Positions 1,893 through 19,544 of a stretch of DNA of 64,000 nt are shown in pieces. Position numbers and translations under genes: made by a program. Location of the stretch: positions 1-64,000 of the IMG/VR virus record IMGVR_UViG_3300045988_173642; one strand, 5' to 3'. The notes under the pieces are model-generated. The model saw only the letters and a program-made list of their open reading frames with translations, was not told where the DNA came from and searched no databases. Each line of letters starts with the position of its first letter. Positions within the stretch are counted from its first letter, which is position 1. This DNA is from a virus.

Positions 1893-4685
1893 TCACAACG
1901 CATACACTTCTAATTCAACCTCACCGATGCCTTCCTGCACGGAGATGGAAGTATTAACCTTGTTGATAAGACATTTTCGGCCATCGATGTTCCACCATTC
2001 CTTCCAATGGTTTTTGATGTCGGCCACTTGTGCCACAGATGCCAGCACCTTCACGTAGAACGTCTTCCGATTAAGCAAGAAATAAACATAGTCAATCAAA
2101 AAAGTATCTACCCATCCTCTATTTTTTACAAAGGGGTCGGAGATGATTAACGGCGCGTCGGCCCATTCAGGCTGCACCCAGGCACGCGGTTTGAGCGAGA
2201 AACTATCGGCATTAGCAACGCCATACACATTGCCGTAGCAATCGATGGAATCCGTTGTCAAGGCATACTTCCCTGCCGTTGTTCGCCATTTGCTGTTGCC
2301 GAAGCCATCGTAATCTGGGTCGTAAACCTCGTGCGTGGCGCCTGCGCCGCCGCCCCTCATGATGGCAACGGACAGTCCCCAATCATGGCTTTGCAGCGGA
2401 GAATTGCCATCGTCGGTAGACGAAGGAGAATAGCTCTCACGAAGCGAAAGCACTTCCGTCACATAGAAGTCTGCCACGGGCGAAGAAATGGAAGTCTTGA
2501 TGTTCTGCACGATAAATTCATGTTCCATCTTGTCTTCGATGGAGGCCACCATGATGTTCTCGGCATATTGACTGTTGATGCCTTGAAGTTCCAAGCCTTC
2601 GTACACCTTTCCCGTCTCCGTCGGCTGCTTCGGATTATCCGACACACAAGTGCTATCGAAGTTAGCAGAGCGAGCCTTGCGGTAGTTGGCATCCACCATC
2701 GGAATGGGCACAAAACTTGATTTCATCTCGTGGATATACTCTTCATTTTCATCTGAGCAATCGCCAAACTCCACGCCCTTAAACGCCCCAACTTCAAACA
2801 AACGCGGTTCCATATTGCTAACGTCGGTGTATTGCGAATCAATCTTGACGCGGTATTTATTGCCCGTCTGCTTATCAATGAAAAGCGTGTCGAGCGTGTT
2901 GCTGATTTTCGGCAAGATTTCGCGGTAGGTGAAAGCCGTGGAAGTTTTCTCTTTATTATAGTCTATATAGTCATAGTCCGTGTTATAGTCCTTGACTTTG
3001 TTCTTCACGTTGTCGCGTTGTTCCTTTGCATCGCTCTCTGCGGAATATCCGACCTTGACCCCGGTGATTTTTTCCGTTATCGGTGTGAACGAAAGCACTT
3101 GTCCAAAGAATCGGCGCGGCTGTGGATTTTGCTTGCGAAAGACATCGCGGATGAGATAGGCCGTCACCTTCTTTTGCTCATAGTCGTAGTTGAACTTGAT
3201 GCCAAATTGCTGTTCCAACGACTCAATCACGTCGCTCACCGTCTCGTTGGGGAAGTTCTCGCCGTTGGCATACATTCGGAAAATGCTGGCGCTCATTTCG
3301 GCTCCCGTGATGGTGCTGCGGCAGGTGATGCTGACCACGTCATCTTCTCCAACAACGCGCTGTTCCCAGTCTCCCAATACCTTGACCACCTCCGTCTTCT
3401 TCGTCGTTCCACCCATGAAGTTTTTCTGTTCCTTCTCAACTATCTTATATTGCACGCTGCGGAAACGCACCTGTTGCACGCTCTTGTTCTTTGGGTTTTC
3501 CAACTTCAGATTGCCGCCACATCCGCGAGAATCCAACCAGGCATTCACGTCGTTGAAGAGGTCTTTAACTTCCGATTCGTTGTTGGCTGTCTTCGTGAAA
3601 TAGCCCAACTTCACATCGCCTTTTTTCTTTAATCCGGTGATGACCTCTTTATCTGTTTCATCATAATAGGTCTTGGCATACAAGGGTACAACGTCATAGG
3701 CACATTTCGTCGTGAAGAAACAAAGGCGGTTGAAATCATAGACTTCCGTCAGAGCGTCCTTGTCAAACTGCACGCCAAGGTGTTCGAAGAGACAGTCGAG
3801 GAAAAAAAGCAAATAGAAGCAAATTCCAGACTGCGGCCTGTCGGCATCCAACACCCACAATGGGCCCATGTCTTCATACATCTTGTCGGGGGCTGTTTCC
3901 TGCGCATATTCAACGATTTTACTCGACGTGTTGCCGTCTTCGCCGATGTCGTAATGAGCATAACAGATGCGGGCGTTGCAATAGGGCTTCGTTGGGTAAG
4001 GCTCAGAAACGTTGATGTATGATTCCGTCACCTCCGGAATGACCACCGACTTGCTATTTGGATAATAGCGCGTTTCCTTTTCCACGGCCTTGTGTCCCCA
4101 GGCGCCATCTTCCTTGCAAGCCGCAGGATAGGAGAATCCAAGCGCCTGTGGCGAAAACGTGATGCTATCCTCGCGATCATCACCAACGGAACCATAAACC
4201 TTATTGCCCTTTTTGCCTGCGAATTTGATTTCAACCGTTGTTGAATATTTGACCCTGACATTCACTTCGTCAATCTTCTCGCCAATCAAGAGTCGGTCGC
4301 GATGGCGCGAAGGGATGGGAACTTCGTTACATTTCAAGTCGCCTATGAGGTCGGAGAAAGAGCGGGTGGCTGCATCCACGTTGAGCGAGAGCGAATCGTC
4401 CGCGCGTTCCCCGTCCTGCACAACAGCCGTTCCAGAAGCGAGCGTGATGCCGTCGGCAACAATCTGCATATTGGTATGTTCCAGGTCAACGGGGCGAATG
4501 GCAGCGCTCGGGTCGTCAAGATTTTTGAGGAAATGGCGGTTGCCTTCAAACGGCAGGTCGACTGGGTAGGAAAACATCTCGTCGTCGTTGAAGAGCGGGT
4601 TACGCAGTTCAACGCTGACGGAAAAATCGCTACCCAGCGTCATCGGTTTGCCGTTAGCCAAGATAGAGAGTTTGCTGTTGCTCAT
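1893..4685 (-). CDS. large tail/baseplate structural protein (930 aa)
   Basis: Uninterrupted 930-aa ORF. Its size and its position among tightly packed same-strand ORFs are typical of tail tip or baseplate proteins. No catalytic motif recognised. Confidence 0.6.
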   Translation of the reverse strand: MSNSKLSILANGKPMTLGSDFSVSVELRNPLFNDDEMFSYPVDLPFEGNRHFLKNLDDPSAAIRPVDLEHTNMQIVADGITLASGTAVVQDGERADDSLSLNVDAATRSFSDLIGDLKCNEVPIPSRHRDRLLIGEKIDEVNVRVKYSTTVEIKFAGKKGNKVYGSVGDDREDSITFSPQALGFSYPAACKEDGAWGHKAVEKETRYYPNSKSVVIPEVTESYINVSEPYPTKPYCNARICYAHYDIGEDGNTSSKIVEYAQETAPDKMYEDMGPLWVLDADRPQSGICFYLLFFLDCLFEHLGVQFDKDALTEVYDFNRLCFFTTKCAYDVVPLYAKTYYDETDKEVITGLKKKGDVKLGYFTKTANNESEVKDLFNDVNAWLDSRGCGGNLKLENPKNKSVQQVRFRSVQYKIVEKEQKNFMGGTTKKTEVVKVLGDWEQRVVGEDDVVSITCRSTITGAEMSASIFRMYANGENFPNETVSDVIESLEQQFGIKFNYDYEQKKVTAYLIRDVFRKQNPQPRRFFGQVLSFTPITEKITGVKVGYSAESDAKEQRDNVKNKVKDYNTDYDYIDYNKEKTSTAFTYREILPKISNTLDTLFIDKQTGNKYRVKIDSQYTDVSNMEPRLFEVGAFKGVEFGDCSDENEEYIHEMKSSFVPIPMVDANYRKARSANFDSTCVSDNPKQPTETGKVYEGLELQGINSQYAENIMVASIEDKMEHEFIVQNIKTSISSPVADFYVTEVLSLRESYSPSSTDDGNSPLQSHDWGLSVAIMRGGGAGATHEVYDPDYDGFGNSKWRTTAGKYALTTDSIDCYGNVYGVANADSFSLKPRAWVQPEWADAPLIISDPFVKNRGWVDTFLIDYVYFLLNRKTFYVKVLASVAQVADIKNHWKEWWNIDGRKCLINKVNTSISVQEGIGEVELEVYAL

Positions 4686-7852: not shown

Positions 7853-9616
7853 TTATTCCTGCTTTGTCACCCCCGTTTTTGAATTATCCAGTGTTGTGAG
7901 CACTTCGCGGTCAATCTGCCAAACGAGGTGAGCGTCCCACTTGTTGACCCTCGTTATCACTTCCAAGGGGCGGAGCATGAGTTGCTGCAACGGGGCAAAC
8001 TGAATCTGCTTTACAAGGAAACGCTCGCGGAGGTCGGTGCCGCCCGATGAAGAAGCGTCGCCGGGGGTGTTTCCGATGAGCTTTGAATCAAGGCCCATAG
8101 CAAAGAAGATGATGGAAGAAATCTCCTGAAGTTCGGTCTTTTCGGCTTGCGCCTGCGAGTTGGCTTTGCTTTCAATCTCCACGATTTCCCACGCCTTATG
8201 CTCTTTGCCGTCTAAGCCCGTGAACACGGCAGAGATGAGCGCCTGACCTGCATTGTCGGGGTTGGAGAGCCACGTGTTGATGTCGGAGAATACCTCTTGC
8301 TGAATTTGCGCCATCGTCTTGTTTTTGTTCTCACCCTGCTGCGTGTAGAGCTGTTTGAGATATTCTTGATGAATGTAGATGACGCGGCCGATGATGTTGG
8401 AGTTTCGCTTGCGGGTCAAACGGTCGTCAACGATGGTGAAGGCATATTCAAAGATGCTTCCTGCAAAGATGGAGTGCCAGAGGGCATCGGCATAGTAGGG
8501 GCCACCGAAATCGCGTGGCGACATGATGAAGCGCGTTGGGCGGTTCTTGCGGCTCACGCGCTGCTGCCGGGCTTCACGCACACGGCGGTCGAGGTCTTTC
8601 ACGGCCGTGTCGGCGGCGAGATAGGGCACGGCGGCGATGCGCAAATCCTCTGGCTTCAGCGTTGTTTGAAGCAATGAGGAGTCGAGCCATTGGTTGGAGG
8701 TGTAGGCATAGTTGATGCGATATTGGTCGTCCATGCGTTCCAGGCGAGTGGTGAAGATGCTGCGGTGTTTCAGTCCGATGACCTTCGGGTCCCATTGCGA
8801 CGTTGGTACGGAATGGCCTTCTGCATCCAGTTGGCGCTGATTAAGTTGAATTTCGCAGAAGCATTGCGACATGAGGGCCATGTCGCCTGCCATGTCGAGA
8901 TAAGTTTGATGCAGATCGTTGTTGTCGATGAACGTTTGCAGTTCATTGTTCGTACGTTCCCATTCAGCGAGGTCGGCTTTGAGCGCCTTCATATCTTCGC
9001 TCTCTTCGTGTGTTTGATTGTTGCTGAGAAGTTCTGAGACGGGATTCTCTGCGGCCGAACCGCTGGCTCCCGAATTTTGTTTCGCTTCACGTTCCTTCGC
9101 TTTGAGGTCGGCAATCTGCCCTCTTAGCAACGTTCCGGCTGAGGAAAAAGGGATGAACTTCTCCGTGATGTTGCCGCCGACGTATTGCGTGTAATGGTAT
9201 TTAGGCGATGGGCCGCGTCCAACGAGAATCTTCTTGACAAACTCAACGCCGGCGGCCGTGAATGGCGACATCTTGGAAAGGATGTAAATGATGTTGGGCA
9301 AGCGGTTGCCAAGGCCCCATTCCATAAACCCGAGGCCTGGTGTGCCAACATGCTCGGGCTTTGCCGTGTTCTCCCCACCACTGGAGGCGAAGACGGCGGC
9401 GATTTCGCGGCGTGCGTTGCCGGTGCCGGTGGATGTGGAGAGCATGGAATGGGCATATTCAGCCCAAGAGAACGTTTGACTGCCATCGGCGTTTGGCCGA
9501 GAAAAAGCAGCGGGGCGCACGGCCTCATATCCTTGCGCCTTGAGCGCTTCGCTGCGCTGCTGGAGTTCGTTGATGTTAGATACGGTATTCATCGCGTTTG
9601 ATGTCTGTGTTGTCAA
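7853..9616 (-). CDS. putative portal protein
   Basis: 587-aa ORF with portal-like size in the virion module. The assignment rests on size and context only; no diagnostic motif was recognised. Confidence 0.4.
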   Translation of the reverse strand: MTTQTSNAMNTVSNINELQQRSEALKAQGYEAVRPAAFSRPNADGSQTFSWAEYAHSMLSTSTGTGNARREIAAVFASSGGENTAKPEHVGTPGLGFMEWGLGNRLPNIIYILSKMSPFTAAGVEFVKKILVGRGPSPKYHYTQYVGGNITEKFIPFSSAGTLLRGQIADLKAKEREAKQNSGASGSAAENPVSELLSNNQTHEESEDMKALKADLAEWERTNNELQTFIDNNDLHQTYLDMAGDMALMSQCFCEIQLNQRQLDAEGHSVPTSQWDPKVIGLKHRSIFTTRLERMDDQYRINYAYTSNQWLDSSLLQTTLKPEDLRIAAVPYLAADTAVKDLDRRVREARQQRVSRKNRPTRFIMSPRDFGGPYYADALWHSIFAGSIFEYAFTIVDDRLTRKRNSNIIGRVIYIHQEYLKQLYTQQGENKNKTMAQIQQEVFSDINTWLSNPDNAGQALISAVFTGLDGKEHKAWEIVEIESKANSQAQAEKTELQEISSIIFFAMGLDSKLIGNTPGDASSSGGTDLRERFLVKQIQFAPLQQLMLRPLEVITRVNKWDAHLVWQIDREVLTTLDNSKTGVTKQE

Positions 9617-14588: not shown

Positions 14589-14796
14589 CAATTTTTGAGT
14601 ACAAATATAGGAAGAACAGTTTTAGCCGTTCGGACATGCTCAAAGCTCCACCAACACCTTTATCTCTCTGTGCCCACCCCCTTGCGTATGCAGCGCGGGC
14701 GATATTCCTTTTGCGGAATACACTCGGCGGCTATTCTCGAACATGCGGTCGTAGGGCGGCGTTTGTATCAGGCCGACAACGATGATGCGCGTGGTT

Positions 14797-15300
14797 TTAT
14801 CCTTCATCGATGCTCACCTTCATGTCCTTCAGACTATGCAAGCAAACCACGCCGTGCCCATCAATCGCCTTCAGGCACGCTGGGCATTCCAGGCAGAACA
14901 CGGAACCAACGGGCGTGCGTTCTCGCTTATGGAGGCACAACGACTTTTTGCTCACATAGAGTTTATTTCTCACCATAAAATCGTTGACAGCACTGACATA
15001 CGTCTTCAGATGTTCATTTTCGGCGCTCAAATCATTACAAAGCGATTTCTTTATTTGTTTGGCAGCGATTTTGTTGTCCTTTTTCATTTCACGAATCTCA
15101 CGCGCCAACTTTTTGTTGTAGTCCATGAGCAGATGCAAGCGCTGCTCCAGCTCTGCGTTTTCTTTCACGGTAATGATGTACTGACGAAGGAGGGCGTGTT
15201 CAAGAGGTTGTTGAGGTGGGTTCTTGGGGGGGGTCTGTGGCCGGTGCGCTTGCTTCTTCTGGCGCATTATTCTCGAGAACAGTAAGCACATCGTCCACAC
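14797..15300 (-). CDS. hypothetical coiled-coil protein with Cys-rich C terminus (probably continuous with 15200..15352)
   Basis: 167-aa ORF with only a GTG at its 5' end. It contains a heptad-rich centre and a CLECPAC...C..H cluster. See the C8-tract finding. Confidence 0.5.
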   Translation of the reverse strand: MWTMCLLFSRIMRQKKQAHRPQTPPKNPPQQPLEHALLRQYIITVKENAELEQRLHLLMDYNKKLAREIREMKKDNKIAAKQIKKSLCNDLSAENEHLKTYVSAVNDFMVRNKLYVSKKSLCLHKRERTPVGSVFCLECPACLKAIDGHGVVCLHSLKDMKVSIDEG

Positions 15301-15352
15301 AAGAATTGGCTATACGTTCTAAATCTGACGAAGAAATAAATTTGTTGTTCAT
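15200..15352 (-). CDS. 50-codon ORF, likely the true 5' part of the 14797..15300 gene
   Basis: Manual translation gives MNNKFISSSDLERIANSCVDDVLTVLENNAPEEASAPATDPPQEPTSTTS. The ATG lies 11 nt after the stop of the upstream mini-ORF. The frame changes at the G8 run 15226-15233. Confidence 0.4.
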   Translation of the reverse strand: MNNKFISSSDLERIANSCVDDVLTVLENNAPEEASAPATDPPQEPTSTTS

Positions 15353-15363
15353 ATTTTTAGAGA

Positions 15364-15540
15364 TTACTCAAATTCATAAATAACGTAAGGCGTGGTATTT
15401 CCAAGCCCATCATTCGGATCGGGGAATCCGCCAGGTGGTAAAGTCGTCACGGCGGTGGCAATCTGCTTGCGTGGTCGGCTCTTCACGATGCCTTTGCCAT
15501 CTTTGTTGCGCACCCAGCCGATGTAAAGTTTTTTAGTCAT
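15364..15540 (-). CDS. TRD-like mini-ORF T6 (58 aa)
   Basis: Sequence is MTKKLYIGWVRNKDGKGIVKSRPRKQIATAVTTLPPGGFPDPNDGLGNTTPYVIYEFE. Its ATG is nested in the stop region of T5 (ATGACTAA). The TTL..GG...hydrophobic-strand pattern resembles the end of a C5-MTase target-recognition domain. Confidence 0.45.
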   Translation of the reverse strand: MTKKLYIGWVRNKDGKGIVKSRPRKQIATAVTTLPPGGFPDPNDGLGNTTPYVIYEFE

Positions 15541-15682
15541 ACTCAATTAAAATAATCGTGTGTTGCCCGTGCGCATCATAGAGTCCTGCCCATCCATCGT
15601 AGCGAGCAGAGAGGGCAGTGGAATACCCACGACGCTGACAGATGCAGGAGAGGCGTTGCACGAAAGGGATTTTTTTAATCAT
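15533..15682 (-). CDS. TRD-like mini-ORF T5 (49 aa)
   Basis: Manual translation gives MIKKIPFVQRLSCICQRRGYSTALSARYDGWAGLYDAHGQHTIILIEYD. The TALSARYDG...ILI string resembles the Dcm-type TLSARY TRD string. It is below the ORF-track size cutoff. Confidence 0.45.
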   Translation of the reverse strand: MIKKIPFVQRLSCICQRRGYSTALSARYDGWAGLYDAHGQHTIILIEYD

Positions 15683-15848
15683 ATTCGATGTATAACATAT
15701 TATCCTTGCCAACTGATGTAAGCGTGTTAATTGTACGCTCTCCGATTATCTCCATGCGCTGACGGAATCGGCCGTTTGAGGGGTAACGACGGTCGGATGG
15801 ATTGTTGGGGTTGCGGCCTCGAAAGGACACTATCTGAAAGTTACGCAT
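15675..15848 (-). CDS. TRD-like mini-ORF T4 (57 aa)
   Basis: Manual translation gives MRNFQIVSFRGRNPNNPSDRRYPSNGRFRQRMEIIGERTINTLTSVGKDNMLYIEYD. The RGR...Q.E....NTLTSV.KDN pattern is typical of one C5-MTase TRD class. Confidence 0.5.
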   Translation of the reverse strand: MRNFQIVSFRGRNPNNPSDRRYPSNGRFRQRMEIIGERTINTLTSVGKDNMLYIEYD

Positions 15849-15864
15849 AGGAGATTATCTTTCG

Positions 15865-16156
15865 TTACGGTGCTGATGGTGTTGCTCCACGGCCACGGAC
15901 TGGGGAGATGCAGCTTGTCTTGAAACCGACACCCGCCCCGGTCGCCATGCACGCGGCGGTAGGCTTTGGCATGTTCCGTTCGGAGATGGATAAGGACGGC
16001 GCGGCGTAATCATACGCTATCAGTATTTTCGGTTTGTCAACATCGTGCCCCTTTCCACCACCAACCAAACAAGGGGAGATACCAAGGGGCGAAACGATGG
16101 TGCCGTTCTGCGAGGGGCTGTAAGAGCCGAGGATGATGGGGCGAGGGGGTGTTCAT
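15865..16156 (-). pseudogene. TRD-like module T3 with no clean start (frame break or read-through)
   Basis: The frame ...PRPIILGSYSPSQNGTIVSPLGISPCLVGGGKGHDVDKPKILIAYDY...VRGRGATPSAP is open from the TGA stop of T2 (16153-16155) to the TAA at 15865. The ATG at 16156 is in a different frame and would join only if the C5 run lost one C. ORF track shows the part from a TTG at 16068. Confidence 0.35.
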
Positions 16157-16320
16157 AATTCTACTGCTACATAATAGTGGTTACGACTGCTGACACCGGT
16201 TTGAATGGTGTAGACAACGCCCACACCGAATCGCTTGTTGTAGGTGTCGACCCACAAAGCATGAGCGGGGCGAAAAACACGTTGGTACATTTGTTCAAGA
16301 CGGGCGTTCTTGTTAAGCAT
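16153..16320 (-). CDS. TRD-like mini-ORF T2 (55 aa)
   Basis: Manual translation gives MLNKNARLEQMYQRVFRPAHALWVDTYNKRFGVGVVYTIQTGVSSRNHYYVAVEL. Its ATG is nested in the stop region of T1 (TATGCTTAA), and its stop overlaps the next ATG (TTATGA). Confidence 0.4.
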   Translation of the reverse strand: MLNKNARLEQMYQRVFRPAHALWVDTYNKRFGVGVVYTIQTGVSSRNHYYVAVEL

Positions 16321-16471
16321 ATTCAAAGATTACTCCTATTGCATCAAAGCCATCTCTTTTCGTGAATAGGAAGTTTCGGGTTCCCATCTTGAAATAGTTA
16401 GCTTTTATCATATGGGCGAGTGGAGTGTTACCCCCATTTGCCGCATTGAGGATTCTTTTATTCAAACTCAT
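16313..16471 (-). CDS. TRD-like mini-ORF T1 (52 aa)
   Basis: Manual translation gives MSLNKRILNAANGGNTPLAHMIKANYFKMGTRNFLFTKRDGFDAIGVIFEYA. It lies 52 nt downstream of the methyltransferase core stop. Confidence 0.4.
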   Translation of the reverse strand: MSLNKRILNAANGGNTPLAHMIKANYFKMGTRNFLFTKRDGFDAIGVIFEYA

Positions 16472-16525
16472 ACAATACTACTGCCATTAGATAGTGGGCG
16501 AATGTGAGGAATGTTCATTCTTTAC

Positions 16526-17854
16526 CTATTTCTTTCCAGGTTTCCTTTCCATATTCTCCTTGAACAACTGCTCAAAGCCTTCGCACGGCATGGTTCCGTT
16601 GGTGGCAAACTTTTCGTAGTTGTCCATGATGTTAGGTGTCTGGCGTTGCAACAGGGCTTCAAGTTCGGTTGGCGATTTGCTCCATCCGTCCAACTCATCC
16701 ATCGCGATTTGCAATGACGTTTTGAGGAACATCGCCGCCTCATGTGTAGGCGGCAAGGCGAATTGCACGAAGAGGGCATTATCCGAGTCGTTGGCCTTGA
16801 GGAACTTGCTAACGGCATCATATTTGAGGAAGAATCTGTCGGCCACCTCTTCTTCGAGAACATCCTCTAAACGGGTCTTCAATTCAAAAGGCGCAGGAAA
16901 CTGATATTCAAAGGCCACATCGCTGCGCATGGAGAGGCAGAACACGCGGTCGCGGTTTTGCGGCACACCATAGTCTTTGGCGTTGAGACGTGCCCAACGG
17001 CTCACATAGCCGAGCGACGAGAGCTTGTCGAGCCACTTTTGAAAGTCGGGCATAAACTTCTGGCTCACCAGTGCCGCCACGTTCTCCTGCAAGAGATACT
17101 TCGGGCGAAGCACCTCCACGGCATCTGCCACGCGCCACAAGAGGGCACTTCGCGTATTGCTACCATCCGTCAATCCCATCTGCTTGCCAGCCTGACTGAT
17201 GTCTTGGCAGGGCGAAGAGTAAGTGAAGAGGTCAACTTCGCTCCCCTGGAGCGACGCCTTGACGGCGTGCCAGTCAATCTTGGTGATGTCGCCAAGAGCG
17301 CGGTTGGCAAACTGCGGAAAGACGAGGTTGTGCATCTGGCAGGCATATTTATCGATGTCGCTCCATCCCATACACGTCCATCGGAAATCGGGATGTCGCT
17401 CCTTCAGCACATCGGCCGCCATGAGCTGAGAATCATAGCCGGAAAACGTCGTGATGATGATTTTCTCGCCACTATCACCTTTGTCAACGGGAAACGCTGG
17501 TAACATCTGCTCGGGAAACATCGTCAACTGCTCATGGCTTTTCACAGGTTGGCTGGGGTACCACAACTGCTCATAGATGTAAGACAACACGTCCACCACA
17601 ATGGAATTACCCGCTTGCTTATATTGCTGACTGGCAGAAACGGCCATCTCCTCTGGCTTACCCTTGGCTTTCCAATCGGGAAGAATGGCCGAAGACTGGG
17701 CGTTGGTGCTCTGCATCGTGCGAATCACGCCCTCACGCACCCCCATCAAACGGAAACATTCGGGGGGGTAAGTTTGCGGATGGCATAGCTTTTGATGGTG
17801 TGGTCGGTGAAATTCAGTTTGGTGATCATTAGTTCGGTTTTTAGTTGTATTCAA
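16526..17854 (-). CDS. DNA (cytosine-5)-methyltransferase catalytic core, circularly permuted motif order (IX-X-I..VIII), no internal TRD
   Basis: Motifs read in order are: PPECFRLMGV (IX), YKQAGNSIVVDV (X), TTFSGYDS (I), SDIDKYA, GDIT, SSPCQDIS (IV, PCQ), QENV (VI) and QNRDRVF (VIII). The ORF-track start at 17854 is a TTG. The natural ATG at 17829 (MITKLNFTDHTIKSYAIRKLTPP...) is out of frame by one nt at the homopolymer 17762-17768. Confidence 0.85.
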   Translation of the reverse strand: MNTTKNRTNDHQTEFHRPHHQKLCHPQTYPPECFRLMGVREGVIRTMQSTNAQSSAILPDWKAKGKPEEMAVSASQQYKQAGNSIVVDVLSYIYEQLWYPSQPVKSHEQLTMFPEQMLPAFPVDKGDSGEKIIITTFSGYDSQLMAADVLKERHPDFRWTCMGWSDIDKYACQMHNLVFPQFANRALGDITKIDWHAVKASLQGSEVDLFTYSSPCQDISQAGKQMGLTDGSNTRSALLWRVADAVEVLRPKYLLQENVAALVSQKFMPDFQKWLDKLSSLGYVSRWARLNAKDYGVPQNRDRVFCLSMRSDVAFEYQFPAPFELKTRLEDVLEEEVADRFFLKYDAVSKFLKANDSDNALFVQFALPPTHEAAMFLKTSLQIAMDELDGWSKSPTELEALLQRQTPNIMDNYEKFATNGTMPCEGFEQLFKENMERKPGKK

Positions 17855-17992
17855 TCATAACGCCTGCATCATTCACATTAGCCTTCAGACATCGGCTTAC
17901 TCCGATAAGGCTTCCACGGTTGAACTCGGCTGTTACTTGCGTAAATACCCCCCGACTTTCGGGATGTGGTAGTTGATTTTGATTTTTGGCAT
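17841..17992 (-). CDS. TRD-like mini-ORF b, frame broken at a 6-nt homopolymer
   Basis: The ATG at 17992 gives MPKIKINYHIPKVGG and then stops early. Adding one nt to the run 17948-17953 joins it to VFTQVTAEFNRGSLIGVSRCLKANVNDAGVMIEYN, which is the ORF-track frame 17841..18023. Confidence 0.4.
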
Positions 17993-18051
17993 ATTGTTTT
18001 ATTATAATTCCACAAACACGCAAACTCCGCCGCCTGACGCGGTCAGAGAGT

Positions 18052-18360
18052 TCACCAACTTACCCCCCCGGCTGTTCTGCTGCGCCTCAGTGCCGAAGAC
18101 GGATAACTGAGGTCGGCAGCTCCGTGGCAGGGGCAATCGGTGTAGCCCAGCTCGGTGGCTTGACGTATGCGAAGGAACGTCTCGCCACCTACGTCCACCA
18201 ACTGAAGGAACGGGCGGTCGGAGGTGGAGTAGATGCGGTAGAGCGAGCCGTCGGGATAGCGTCCATACAGTTTGCCGTCCTTGCGGATGGTGCCGCGCTT
18301 ATAGTGAGGCGGGGCACTTCGGGGCGCAGGTTGGTTTTTGCGGGGTTTTAGTGAAACCAT
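18052..18360 (-). CDS. TRD-like ORF a (102 aa as sequenced; 119 aa ending at 18002 if the 7-nt homopolymer had 8 nt)
   Basis: The string LRIRQATELGYTDCPCHGAADLSYPSSALRRSRTAGG matches the ATKKGY...S.TRRGRVG TRD pattern of phage C5-MTases. With one extra nt at 18063-18069 it continues GKLVNSLTASGGGVCVFVEL followed by a stop. Confidence 0.45.
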   Translation of the reverse strand: MVSLKPRKNQPAPRSAPPHYKRGTIRKDGKLYGRYPDGSLYRIYSTSDRPFLQLVDVGGETFLRIRQATELGYTDCPCHGAADLSYPSSALRRSRTAGGVSW

Positions 18361-18365
18361 GTGCG

Positions 18366-19544
18366 CTATCCTTTCGCCTTGAAGTTGTATATCGGTTTTA
18401 TGCGCTTCACGACTTCCACTGTATCGCCTATAAGCGATTCAATTTCTTCGGCCGACTTATATGCCATTGGCGACTCGTCGATGGTTGACTCGCAGACGGA
18501 TGTAGAGTATATGCCCTGCATTTCCTTGCTGTATTCCTCCATAGTAAGCGTTTCCTTTGCCTTGGCTCTCGACATAAGGCGACCTGCACCGTGAGGAGCC
18601 GAGCAAAGCCAATCCTCGTTGCCTTTGCCACGGCATATCAACGAACCATCGCGCATATTGAGCGGAATGATGAGCCGCTCGTCCTTTTCAGCTCGCACGG
18701 CTCCTTTTCGGATGATACTTGAGTGGATGTTGAAATAGTTGTGTCTGGTGGTGAAGAAATCCTCGAACGGCATTTGAAGCCCACGAAGGATAGTCATTGC
18801 TATATTCCATCTGTTCTCGTCGGCAAAATCCTGGCAGACGTGCGCAGCAAAATTGTAAGCGTTAAGGTCTTCGCCTTCAAGATAGGCGAGGTCGGAAGGT
18901 ACCGTACCTAAGCGACGCAACGTATTGTTAATCTCTCTCTCCAAACCATACCTCTTTAAGTCTTCGATGATGCGGTTGCGCTCCTCTCTGTGGTTCACAT
19001 TCTTCTGGGCTAAGTGTTGGAAATAGTTGCACACCTTCACACCGAGATTACGACTTCCCGAATGTACAACAAGATACTTACAGCCCTGCTCGTCCTCGTT
19101 AAGTTCGATGAAATGGTTGCCACCACCGAGAGAACCAAGCGAACGTTCGATATAGTCGAGGTCGAAGCAACCTTCTGTACGTTCGTGCAAAACGTCCAAA
19201 CAACGTAACATTAACGGACTCATTTCTTTTAGTTTGGACTTTTCGTAAACGTCAAATCCGCTCGGCACCGACTCGTTGATGATTCGGTCGAGAAGCGAAA
19301 GGTTTACATCCTTCTTGCCGAGCTGAACTACCAACATGCCACAGCCTATATCTACGCCTACGGTATTTGGTACAACCTTGCCGGCAATCTTAATTACCGT
19401 GCCAATCGTGCTCCCCTTGCCGGCATGACAGTCGGGCATAATGCGTATCTGACAGTCGCGATAAGCCTCGCTCGCTGCCATTCTCTTAATCTGTTCCTTC
19501 GCCTCCTGCTCAATGGTCTTGGCGAAAATCTTTACGTTCTTCAT
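18366..19544 (-). CDS. rtcB: RtcB-family RNA 3'-phosphate/5'-OH ligase
   Basis: Conserved RtcB strings are present: MPDCHAGKG, GGGNHFIEL, VVHSGSRNLG and SAPHGAGR. Length is 392 aa. Confidence 0.9.
   Translation of the reverse strand: MKNVKIFAKTIEQEAKEQIKRMAASEAYRDCQIRIMPDCHAGKGSTIGTVIKIAGKVVPNTVGVDIGCGMLVVQLGKKDVNLSLLDRIINESVPSGFDVYEKSKLKEMSPLMLRCLDVLHERTEGCFDLDYIERSLGSLGGGNHFIELNEDEQGCKYLVVHSGSRNLGVKVCNYFQHLAQKNVNHREERNRIIEDLKRYGLEREINNTLRRLGTVPSDLAYLEGEDLNAYNFAAHVCQDFADENRWNIAMTILRGLQMPFEDFFTTRHNYFNIHSSIIRKGAVRAEKDERLIIPLNMRDGSLICRGKGNEDWLCSAPHGAGRLMSRAKAKETLTMEEYSKEMQGIYSTSVCESTIDESPMAYKSAEEIESLIGDTVEVVKRIKPIYNFKAKG

Follow-up and report, generated by a model that had tools for sequence, protein, structure and literature searches.

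Can the sequence specificity of a C5-cytosine methyltransferase (C5-MTase) be supplied by separate small proteins instead of by a domain of its own chain? C5-MTases are textbook single-chain enzymes with built-in specificity, and the known exceptions are fixed two-part splits. The question is raised by a locus on the minus strand of a 64,000-nucleotide (nt) stretch of viral DNA, IMG/VR record IMGVR_UViG_3300045988_173642 (this whole stretch is referred to as the window). Here a catalytic core gene that lacks a target-recognition domain (TRD) lies in a compact block with ten short open reading frames (mini-ORFs) of 45-120 amino acids, all on the minus strand: two upstream of the core, seven downstream of it and the tenth farther away, at 14640-14807. 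An earlier note made from the letters of this DNA had described eight stand-alone TRD-like mini-ORFs; their presence is borne out, but the count is ten, the modules called F2 and F10 below having been missed, the second of which falls beyond the coordinates given in that note. Our preferred reading, to which we assign a probability of about 0.6, is that the locus encodes a multi-subunit, multispecific C5-MTase whose core and TRD mini-proteins would assemble in trans.

The window belongs to a tailed phage, with genes for a 1862-amino-acid tape-measure protein and a head maturation protease, and the host of this gut phage is probably Prevotella-like. A megablast search of 50,697 deposited phage genomes with the 4.2-kb region gave no match. 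Scanning IMG/VR gave 130 loci in which this core recurs (67-94% identity); 80 of them were fetched and form the basis of the counts given here for relatives. Modules from these relatives were clustered into families, whose F numbers are our own labels, and a hidden Markov model (HMM) was built for each family from the modules of the 80 loci. These HMMs match the window modules at E=1e-18 to 4e-53. Selection was assessed as the ratio of nonsynonymous to synonymous differences (pN/pS) from Nei-Gojobori counts, with module pS at ~0.4-0.6. Insertions and deletions in the window were placed by reference to L003, a 94%-identical relative that shares the frameshift in the core.

The core lies at 16526-17829 on the minus strand and is frameshifted in this copy. 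Its open frame, 16526-17854, corresponds to 442 amino acids, with the actual start at ATG 17829 (MITKLNFTDHTIKSYAIRKLTP). The core motif strings quoted in the earlier note are all present in the translation, where we read TTFSGYDS, SSPCQDIS, QENV, QNRDRVF, IRKLTP.ECFRLMG and QAGNSIVV. Pfam family PF00145 matches the core at E=6.5e-46 in two stretches, one covering profile positions 23-218 of 324 and the other covering motifs IX-X. The overall layout is an N-terminal β-hairpin, motif IX, motif X, a linker, motifs I-VIII and a C-terminal tail of ~110 amino acids. Alignment to structures in the PDB gave the same arrangement: in the intact relative L010, residues 190-325 align to residues 115-253 of M.MpeI (motifs IV-VIII) and residues 15-44 align to residues 333-362 (motif IX). 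Because these alignments fall in permuted positions, the order IX-X-I…VIII is real. PDB alignments of the core family extend to M.HhaI and M.HaeIII.

The same comparisons place the missing TRD. The core begins MITKLNFTDRTIKSYAIRKLTP, 16 residues ahead of motif IX, and the Pfam and PDB alignments cover motifs IX-X and I-VIII only, so that the TRD found between VIII and IX in the same chain is not present. The TRD-family HMMs gave no match to the core family. Since motifs IX-X precede I-VIII, both core termini sit at the usual TRD site. The description of the core in the earlier note as permuted and TRD-less is thus upheld by the PF00145 match, the PDB alignments and the lack of a TRD-HMM match. 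An AlphaFold model of the homologue P0306, based on a 74-sequence alignment, is confident over the core (mean predicted local distance difference test score, pLDDT, of 82), and Foldseek places this model on M.MpeI, M.HhaI and M.HaeIII. In the model the residues before motif IX form a β-hairpin and the chain ends in a helix-strand-helix tail. The core is intact in 77 of the 80 relatives, and its family comprises thousands of database proteins of 435-463 amino acids with annotations that include 'uncultured Prevotella sp.' and 'Caudoviricetes sp.'; permutation was also found in 14 of the 150 best representative homologues. The ~110-amino-acid tail (window 16526-16870) is missing from the conventional C5-MTases that we examined. 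It is mostly helical in a low-confidence model of the fusion protein P0114, and is also carried by P0176, a 329-amino-acid protein with motifs I-VIII only.

Are the mini-ORFs TRDs? As judged from family profiles, nine of the ten window modules are homologous, either directly or through a profile-linked family, to TRD modules fused between motifs VIII and IX of other enzymes, with support from HMM matches, a survey of TRD intervals and profile-profile comparison. In the survey, the family HMMs were run against the best 150 matches of a search with the P0001 core in a 50%-identity representative library. Nineteen families match the VIII-IX interval of about 75 of these 150 diverse C5-MTases, several of which (P0258, P0237, P0283, P0309 and P0234) carry four to eight modules in tandem. 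Profile-profile comparison joins further families into three superfamilies. Pfam searches with single mini-ORFs returned nothing significant, and phmmer with one mini-ORF against the PDB found no match even at E≤10. Searches with single sequences fail because the modules are too short and too divergent; family HMMs run against full-length enzymes succeeded. The proposal of the earlier note that the mini-ORFs represent classes of C5-MTase TRD is therefore sustained for nine of the ten, which the HMMs link to fused TRDs including those of Bacillus phage enzymes.

The link to the Bacillus phages is provided by F10 (14640-14807), a classical TRD that is intact in the window, where its sequence includes …RRVYSAKGISPALHTQGGGHREIKVLVEL. 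In tblastn it matches the TRD regions of the multispecific methylases of phages H2, rho11s, phi3T and SPβ at E=1e-4 to 2e-3 with coverage of 84-91%, the H2 match being at E=1e-4 with 48% identity. The F10 HMM matches the H2, rho11s and phi3T enzymes at E=3e-16 to 3e-10, along with ~40 conventional enzymes. Upstream of the core lie F3 and F18, both of which are split in this copy. F3 (18002-18360), a large TRD module that reads RIRQATELGY…RRSRTxGGGKLVNxLTA…VFVEL, is matched by its HMM in two frames, at E=3.5e-53 (positions 3-85) and 1e-4 (positions 84-105). It measures 105-119 amino acids in relatives, has a pN/pS of 0.18, and matches a Streptococcus phage methylase and the VIII-IX interval of P0237, P0283, P0309 and P0234. 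F18 (17841-17992; …GVSRCLKANVNDAGVMIEYN) is likewise matched in two frames, at E=1e-18 (positions 13-50) and 9e-5 (positions 1-15); its counterparts are found in P0194, P0270, P0283, P0309 and residues 199-227 of gene b of Dulem virus 40 (PP511379.1).

The remaining modules follow the core. F32 (16313-16471; HMM E=3.4e-34; …HMIKANYFKMGTRNFLF…GVIFEYA) is intact, has a pN/pS of 0.26, and is profile-linked to F42, F60, F20, F17 and F69, families with counterparts in the TRD intervals of P0258, Dulem virus 40 gene b and others. The intact F33 (16153-16320; E=3.3e-40; …YTIQTGVSSRNHYYVAVEL; pN/pS 0.23) occurs as an N-terminal fusion in the single-chain permuted enzymes P0212 and P0306 and as an internal module in P0224. 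F1 (16007-16156; E=1.2e-30; …SPSQNGTIVSPLGISPCLVGGGKGHDVDKPKILIAYD) is a classical GIxPxLxxGGG TRD whose frame is disrupted in the window; its pN/pS is 0.17 and it is profile-linked to F10 and F53. F2 (15830-16013; E=1.1e-38), with its ATG out of frame, contains TISTVTKDNLLCVTFR and …HGDRGGCRFQDKLHLPSPWPWSNTISTVTKDNLLCVTFR, has a pN/pS of 0.25, and matches TRD intervals of P0195, P0234, P0249, P0283 and P0182. F0 (15675-15848; E=1.4e-32; FRGRNPNNPSDRR…INTLTSVGKDNMLYIEYD) is intact and matches residues 93-136 of Dulem virus 40 gene b at E=2e-11 and P0238, P0251, P0259, P0266 and P0319 at ~1e-13. F6 (15364-15540; E=7.6e-35; MTKKLYIGWVRNKDGKGIVKSRPRKQIATAVTT…GLGNTTPYVIYEFE), also intact, is fused to the N-terminus of the permuted P0210 and to the C-terminus of the core in P0114, and is internal in P0213, P0258, P0269 and P0307; its database clusters, 51 in all, consist without exception of stand-alone proteins of 47-72 amino acids labelled 'hypothetical protein'. 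The tenth module is the intact F7 (15533-15682; E=5.1e-34; TALSARYDGW… and …STALSARYDGWAGLYDAHGQHTIILIEYD; pN/pS 0.30). No fused counterpart of F7 was found among the surveyed enzymes, and its resemblance to a TRD is limited to its position, size and C-terminus.

The relatives show whether these modules are genes in their own right. The 80 loci hold 990 module-bearing stop-to-stop segments, with a median of 12.5 per locus (four upstream and nine downstream of the core) and up to 20 modules in relatives, and at least 26 families are represented. Across at least 26 families, pN/pS is 0.15-0.50 in the mini-ORF frames, and ~1 or more, up to 9, in the overlapping shadow frames; the mini-ORFs are under purifying selection. 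Each module has its own conserved ATG. Adjacent modules overlap by their start and stop codons; the overlap is 8 nt long in 276 pairs, 19 nt long in 48 and 4 nt long in 24. The usual junction is TATGAnTAA, in which …GAA TAT GAn TAA is also read as ATG Ann. In the window, the start of F33 overlaps the stop of F32 by 8 nt, F0 overlaps F2 by 19 nt, and F7 and F6 each show an 8-nt overlap. The module C-termini, EYD (181), EYE (104) and VEL (91), coincide with the end of the last hydrophobic strand, and the stop codons are TAA (456), TGA (162) and TAG (84). Genuine two-module fusions number only three among the 990 segments. The fusions that we located, of the kinds core+F6, F10+F2 and F2+F14, lie at L086 2534-4009 (encoding P0114), L081 7137-7481, L080 6907-7203 and L031 6627-6968, and these rare natural fusions may be functional variants or frameshift products.

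Across the family, then, the mini-ORFs are maintained as separate genes and are not decay products. The earlier note had argued from the window that the modules end right after their last hydrophobic strand with overlapping stop and start codons, and that they are translated genes as opposed to random decay. The first point holds across the relatives, and the second is supported by the pN/pS values together with the conserved starts and overlaps. Simple pseudogene decay is rejected for the family on the grounds of selection, the overlaps and the three fusions in 990 segments; it is not rejected for the window copy.

The same split recurs at a greater distance. A search with P0306 uncovered a clade with two length classes, one of ~432-500 amino acids with an N-terminal module and one of ~366-383 amino acids with no module. 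TRD-less permuted cores of this clade, P0374 and P0435, are ~40-55% identical and are flanked by stand-alone F1-, F2-, F14-, F6-, F32- and F0-like mini-genes, the junctions in the distant clade being short gaps rather than overlaps. In L087, an F1-like stand-alone ORF adjoins the distant core (E=1e-22), and at 2850-3520 three TRD mini-ORFs and the core lie in one frame, separated by TAA, TGA and TAA with a new ATG 3-6 codons after each stop. This locus looks like a snapshot of a fused enzyme, with the TRD ahead of a permuted core (type H), being cut into separate genes. The core-plus-array architecture that the earlier note suggested looking for in metagenomic phages is thus present in 80 loci, with the modules separate, and a second clade repeats the split.

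Fused forms complete the picture. Single-chain fusions of a module to the core N-terminus are found in P0212, P0306, P0210 and P0182, and P0114, a rare form from a single 4.1-kb contig, has F6 fused to the core C-terminus. Fusion at either core end is what a TRD located between the two termini would lead one to expect. A gene of the PAPS-reductase family (PF01507; L086 1423-1947) lies ~600 nt upstream of P0114, and inteins or Hint domains (PF14528, PF13403, PF14890) were seen in the permuted P0306 homologues P0359, P0413, P0423, P0427 and P0430, of 738-809 amino acids. Dulem virus 40 (L001 4025-5965) has a different arrangement, in which gene a encodes 258 amino acids with motifs I-VIII and gene b encodes 373 amino acids comprising six or seven tandem TRDs (approximately) followed by motifs IX-X. 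The family HMMs read the module run of gene b as F60/F42, F10, F0, F3, F5 and F18; the two genes (XCD03592 and XCD03591) are annotated only as 'cytosine specific methyltransferase'. The pair resembles a midway state, with single-chain multispecific enzymes on one side and full detachment on the other. The earlier note had recognized that finding the modules fused into one ordinary enzyme in related genomes would speak against separate genes: the close relatives keep them separate, and fusion was seen only in distant proteins such as Dulem virus 40 gene b, P0258, P0309 and others. The anatomy of the system, namely TRD homology, separateness, purifying selection and conservation, is solid and widespread.

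The window copy itself is damaged. Some five frame disruptions within 3 kb hit the core and four modules, and three of these are in G/C homopolymers. In the core, one nucleotide is missing from a C7 run (plus-strand G7, 17762-17768); the tract is C7 in the window and L003 and C8, in frame, in L057 and L059, which accounts for the 'frame repair' that the earlier note had found necessary. Relative to L003, a single missing nucleotide splits F3 in a G7/G8 run (plus-strand C7, 18063-18069) and F18 in a G6/G7 run (plus-strand C6, 17948-17953). A 1-nt insertion at ~16149 puts the body of F1 out of frame with its ATG at 16156, and another at ~16006 removes the F1 stop and leaves the F2 start out of frame. 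Three of the four G/C runs of at least 7 nt in the window fall within 15226-18069, which is ~6% of its length, and all three are at frame breaks. This pattern looks like contingency-locus phase variation, the alternatives being homopolymer miscalls and real decay; the window copy is switched off, decaying or mis-sequenced at G/C runs. In other phage genomes, modules broken into two frames have their break precisely at the GGGG codons in the 'T.GGG' loop of the TRD (L004 8987-9167, L055 8337-8502, L081 6562-6730 and L035 6800-6969), an event like that in F3 of the window.

How might a TRD-less core and free TRDs work together? Linkage is what suggests that the modules serve the core, and from the anatomy we infer assembly, enzymatic activity, specificities and an anti-restriction role. 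In the mechanism that we propose, one gene would make the catalytic core and about ten translationally coupled genes would each make one TRD. Each TRD mini-protein would dock non-covalently between the core termini, the likely contact being the addition of its terminal hydrophobic strand, …ILIEY-D/E, to the core N-terminal hairpin and the C-terminal strand or tail; the tail is a candidate docking adaptor for the mini-proteins. Docking would complete the small domain, so that many alternative specificity subunits would have one core in common. As a result, the phage genome would carry 5-methylcytosine (5mC) at about ten motifs and be shielded from many host restriction systems, and modules would be gained, lost and swapped between phages as cassettes. 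A more specific version, on which our judgement is evenly balanced, is a dissociable holoenzyme in which any one free TRD mini-protein (45-60 amino acids) out of a library from at least 26 families could program the core, much like 'S subunits' for m5C enzymes; gut phages would use it as a cassette-exchangeable and possibly phase-variable system for anti-restriction methylation of multiple targets.

Several observations weigh against assembly in trans. The AlphaFold model of P0114, the natural core-TRD fusion, has a pLDDT of 45 with a shallow alignment and yields no usable TRD placement, and the TRD region of the P0306 model has a pLDDT of 32-51 and gives no docking information. Four families, F7 of the window and F12, F54 and F61, gave no TRD homology. 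As the core is frameshifted in both the window and L003, at least this copy may be inactive. Finally, in an engineered class-J permutation of M.MpeI and M.SssI, a large-domain fragment combined with a detached TRD-containing fragment was inactive (PMC5944983).

The main rival explanation is that the mini-proteins act independently, as site blockers, by titrating or redirecting host methylases or restriction enzymes, or in some other regulation, next to a self-sufficient core of low or fixed specificity. It would account for the structure models in which no TRD placement on the core was obtained, for the P0306 model, where an N-terminal hairpin and a C-terminal strand/helix of the core's own lie beside motif IX, and for the failure of the engineered detached TRD fragment to complement (PMC5944983). 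It does not account for the modules being always clustered on both sides of a TRD-less core, in two divergent clades, nor for the same modules being ordinary cis TRDs in related enzymes. Moreover, we know of no TRD-less C5-MTase that is sequence-specific, and an isolated 45-amino-acid TRD does not, to our knowledge, bind DNA alone; on these grounds we consider independent action unlikely. Harder still to accept is a core that is active alone or with one or two modules, the rest being baggage detached from a fused ancestor and the window an advanced stage of decay. Purifying selection on at least 26 families at a pS of 0.4-0.6, conserved start codons and stop/start overlaps, 77 intact cores among 80, a core family of thousands of database proteins and the same architecture in a distant clade all count against it, although the frame disruptions in the window copy and the existence of fused ancestor-like forms (Dulem virus 40 gene b, P0258 and P0309) are what it would predict, and ~29% of module hits in relatives are not end-to-end over the HMM.

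Two further explanations would restore a conventional enzyme, and neither seems credible. If recoding (stop reassignment, readthrough, serial frameshifting or ribosome hopping) joined the modules into one multi-TRD chain, loci such as L087, with its single stops between in-frame mini-ORFs and core, would make sense, and stop-codon reassignment does occur in some gut phages. However, TAA, TGA and TAG all serve as module stops, as they do at the ends of ordinary genes, and the modules are therefore not fused by reassignment of a stop codon. Neighbouring modules are also in different frames with overlaps of 8, 19 or 4 nt, no slippery sites were noticed at the junctions that we read, and, with a conserved ATG in every module, ten modules would need about ten consecutive events; recoding is accordingly very improbable. 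Least plausible of all is a normal multispecific methylase gene that only looks fragmented through errors of assembly or sequencing. Several of the frame breaks in the window are in G/C homopolymers, but the module boundaries are not, and these boundaries recur at the same structural position both in the 80 loci from IMG/VR and in assemblies of many samples from ENA, Logan, JGI and NCBI, with conserved ATG/stop overlaps and frame-specific purifying selection. Pilin-like recombination between cassettes and an expression site was considered and dropped: no fused-TRD expression site is present in the 77 of 80 loci with an intact core, and the modules are co-oriented with their own starts.

The proposed trans assembly of core and mini-proteins is best appreciated by comparison with known enzymes. 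The multispecific methylases of Bacillus phages, M.SPRI, M.Phi3TI, M.Rho11sI, M.H2I and the SPβ enzyme MtbP, are phage orphan C5-MTases in which one catalytic framework has several TRDs of ~40-60 amino acids, each for a different target, much as is proposed for the window locus; their presumed role, self-protection from restriction, would be the same. Their TRDs, however, are in tandem in one chain, between motifs VIII and IX in the canonical order, whereas the window has one gene per TRD, a permuted core and ten modules. M.AquI resembles the window locus in that the window core ends after motif VIII and the tail, with TRDs in separate ORFs. M.AquI and artificial splits are precedents, and M.AquI-type splits complement efficiently (PMC5944983). 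But M.AquI (α/β) and the Dulem virus 40 pair each consist of two fixed subunits in which the TRD or TRDs are covalently joined to motifs IX-X, while in the window IX-X is on the core and ~10 alternative TRDs are free.

Natural permuted C5-MTases of type H carry motifs IX-X before I-VIII, with the permutation site in the variable region (PMC5944983). M.BssHII, M.Alw26I, M2.Eco31I, M.Esp3I and M2.BsaI thus have the same IX-X-first order as the window core, and P0212, P0306, P0210 and P0182 have a single-chain type H layout. Type H enzymes keep an N-terminal TRD, whereas the window core has none and opens with the hairpin that leads into motif IX, past the place of a TRD; the earlier note's appeal to M.BssHII as a precedent is therefore apt for the permutation but not for detachment of the TRD, which in that enzyme is still attached. 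The engineered class-J split of M.MpeI and M.SssI (Slaska-Kiss et al. 2018, PMC5944983) embodies the same idea, a large-domain fragment (X, I-VIII) with a detached small domain, but left motif IX with the TRD, whereas the natural core keeps IX and has the extra ~110-amino-acid tail. A purely functional analogy is HsdS of Type I systems, a separate, exchangeable specificity polypeptide that works with a shared methylase subunit and diversifies by module exchange. The folds and chemistry are unrelated (an N6-adenine γ-class methyltransferase with two TRDs per HsdS) and there is no homology. Type I systems usually have a single active HsdS, compared with ten modules side by side in one apparent operon here. 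The earlier note knew of no permuted core served by separate plug-in TRDs, and our full-text literature search, which covered open-access papers only, likewise found no description of stand-alone TRD genes.

The genes around the array give some context. Immediately upstream on the minus strand is an RtcB-type RNA ligase gene (18366-19544; PHROG 1075, E=6e-127), which places an RNA-repair function beside the putative anti-restriction locus of this phage. The window and L003 (3288-4466) both have the RtcB gene directly before the methylase block; different genes occupy this position in the other loci that we inspected. No terminator-like sites were found on the minus strand inside the array. Between F6 and F10 lies a conserved minus-strand gene without an assigned function (14797-15352), which is not a TRD. 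It encodes a coiled-coil protein with a Cys-rich C-terminus, has no PHROG match, and is split in the window at a homopolymer (plus-strand G8, 15226-15233); in L003 it is intact (8599-9153) and encodes 184 amino acids. This gene probably does not belong to the methylase system. Unrelated genes of other kinds interrupt arrays elsewhere, as at L003 7442-8239, and this variety indicates that the modules behave as loose cassettes and not as one rigid block.

If the core and mini-proteins do assemble in trans, the consequences would reach beyond this locus. The arrays would amount to a library of minimal TRDs with naturally defined boundaries; where TRD boundaries lie is a long-standing question in the literature on multispecific methylases. 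They would also offer a plug-and-play template for split or programmable cytosine methylation, where engineered versions failed (PMC5944983). The annotation of m5C methylase specificity would change: no specificity would be assigned to such cores, and the label now given to the mini-genes is 'hypothetical protein'. For the phages themselves, a shared core with many alternative TRDs would account for the way in which abundant gut phages deal with Bacteroidota-like hosts, whose restriction-modification repertoires are dense.

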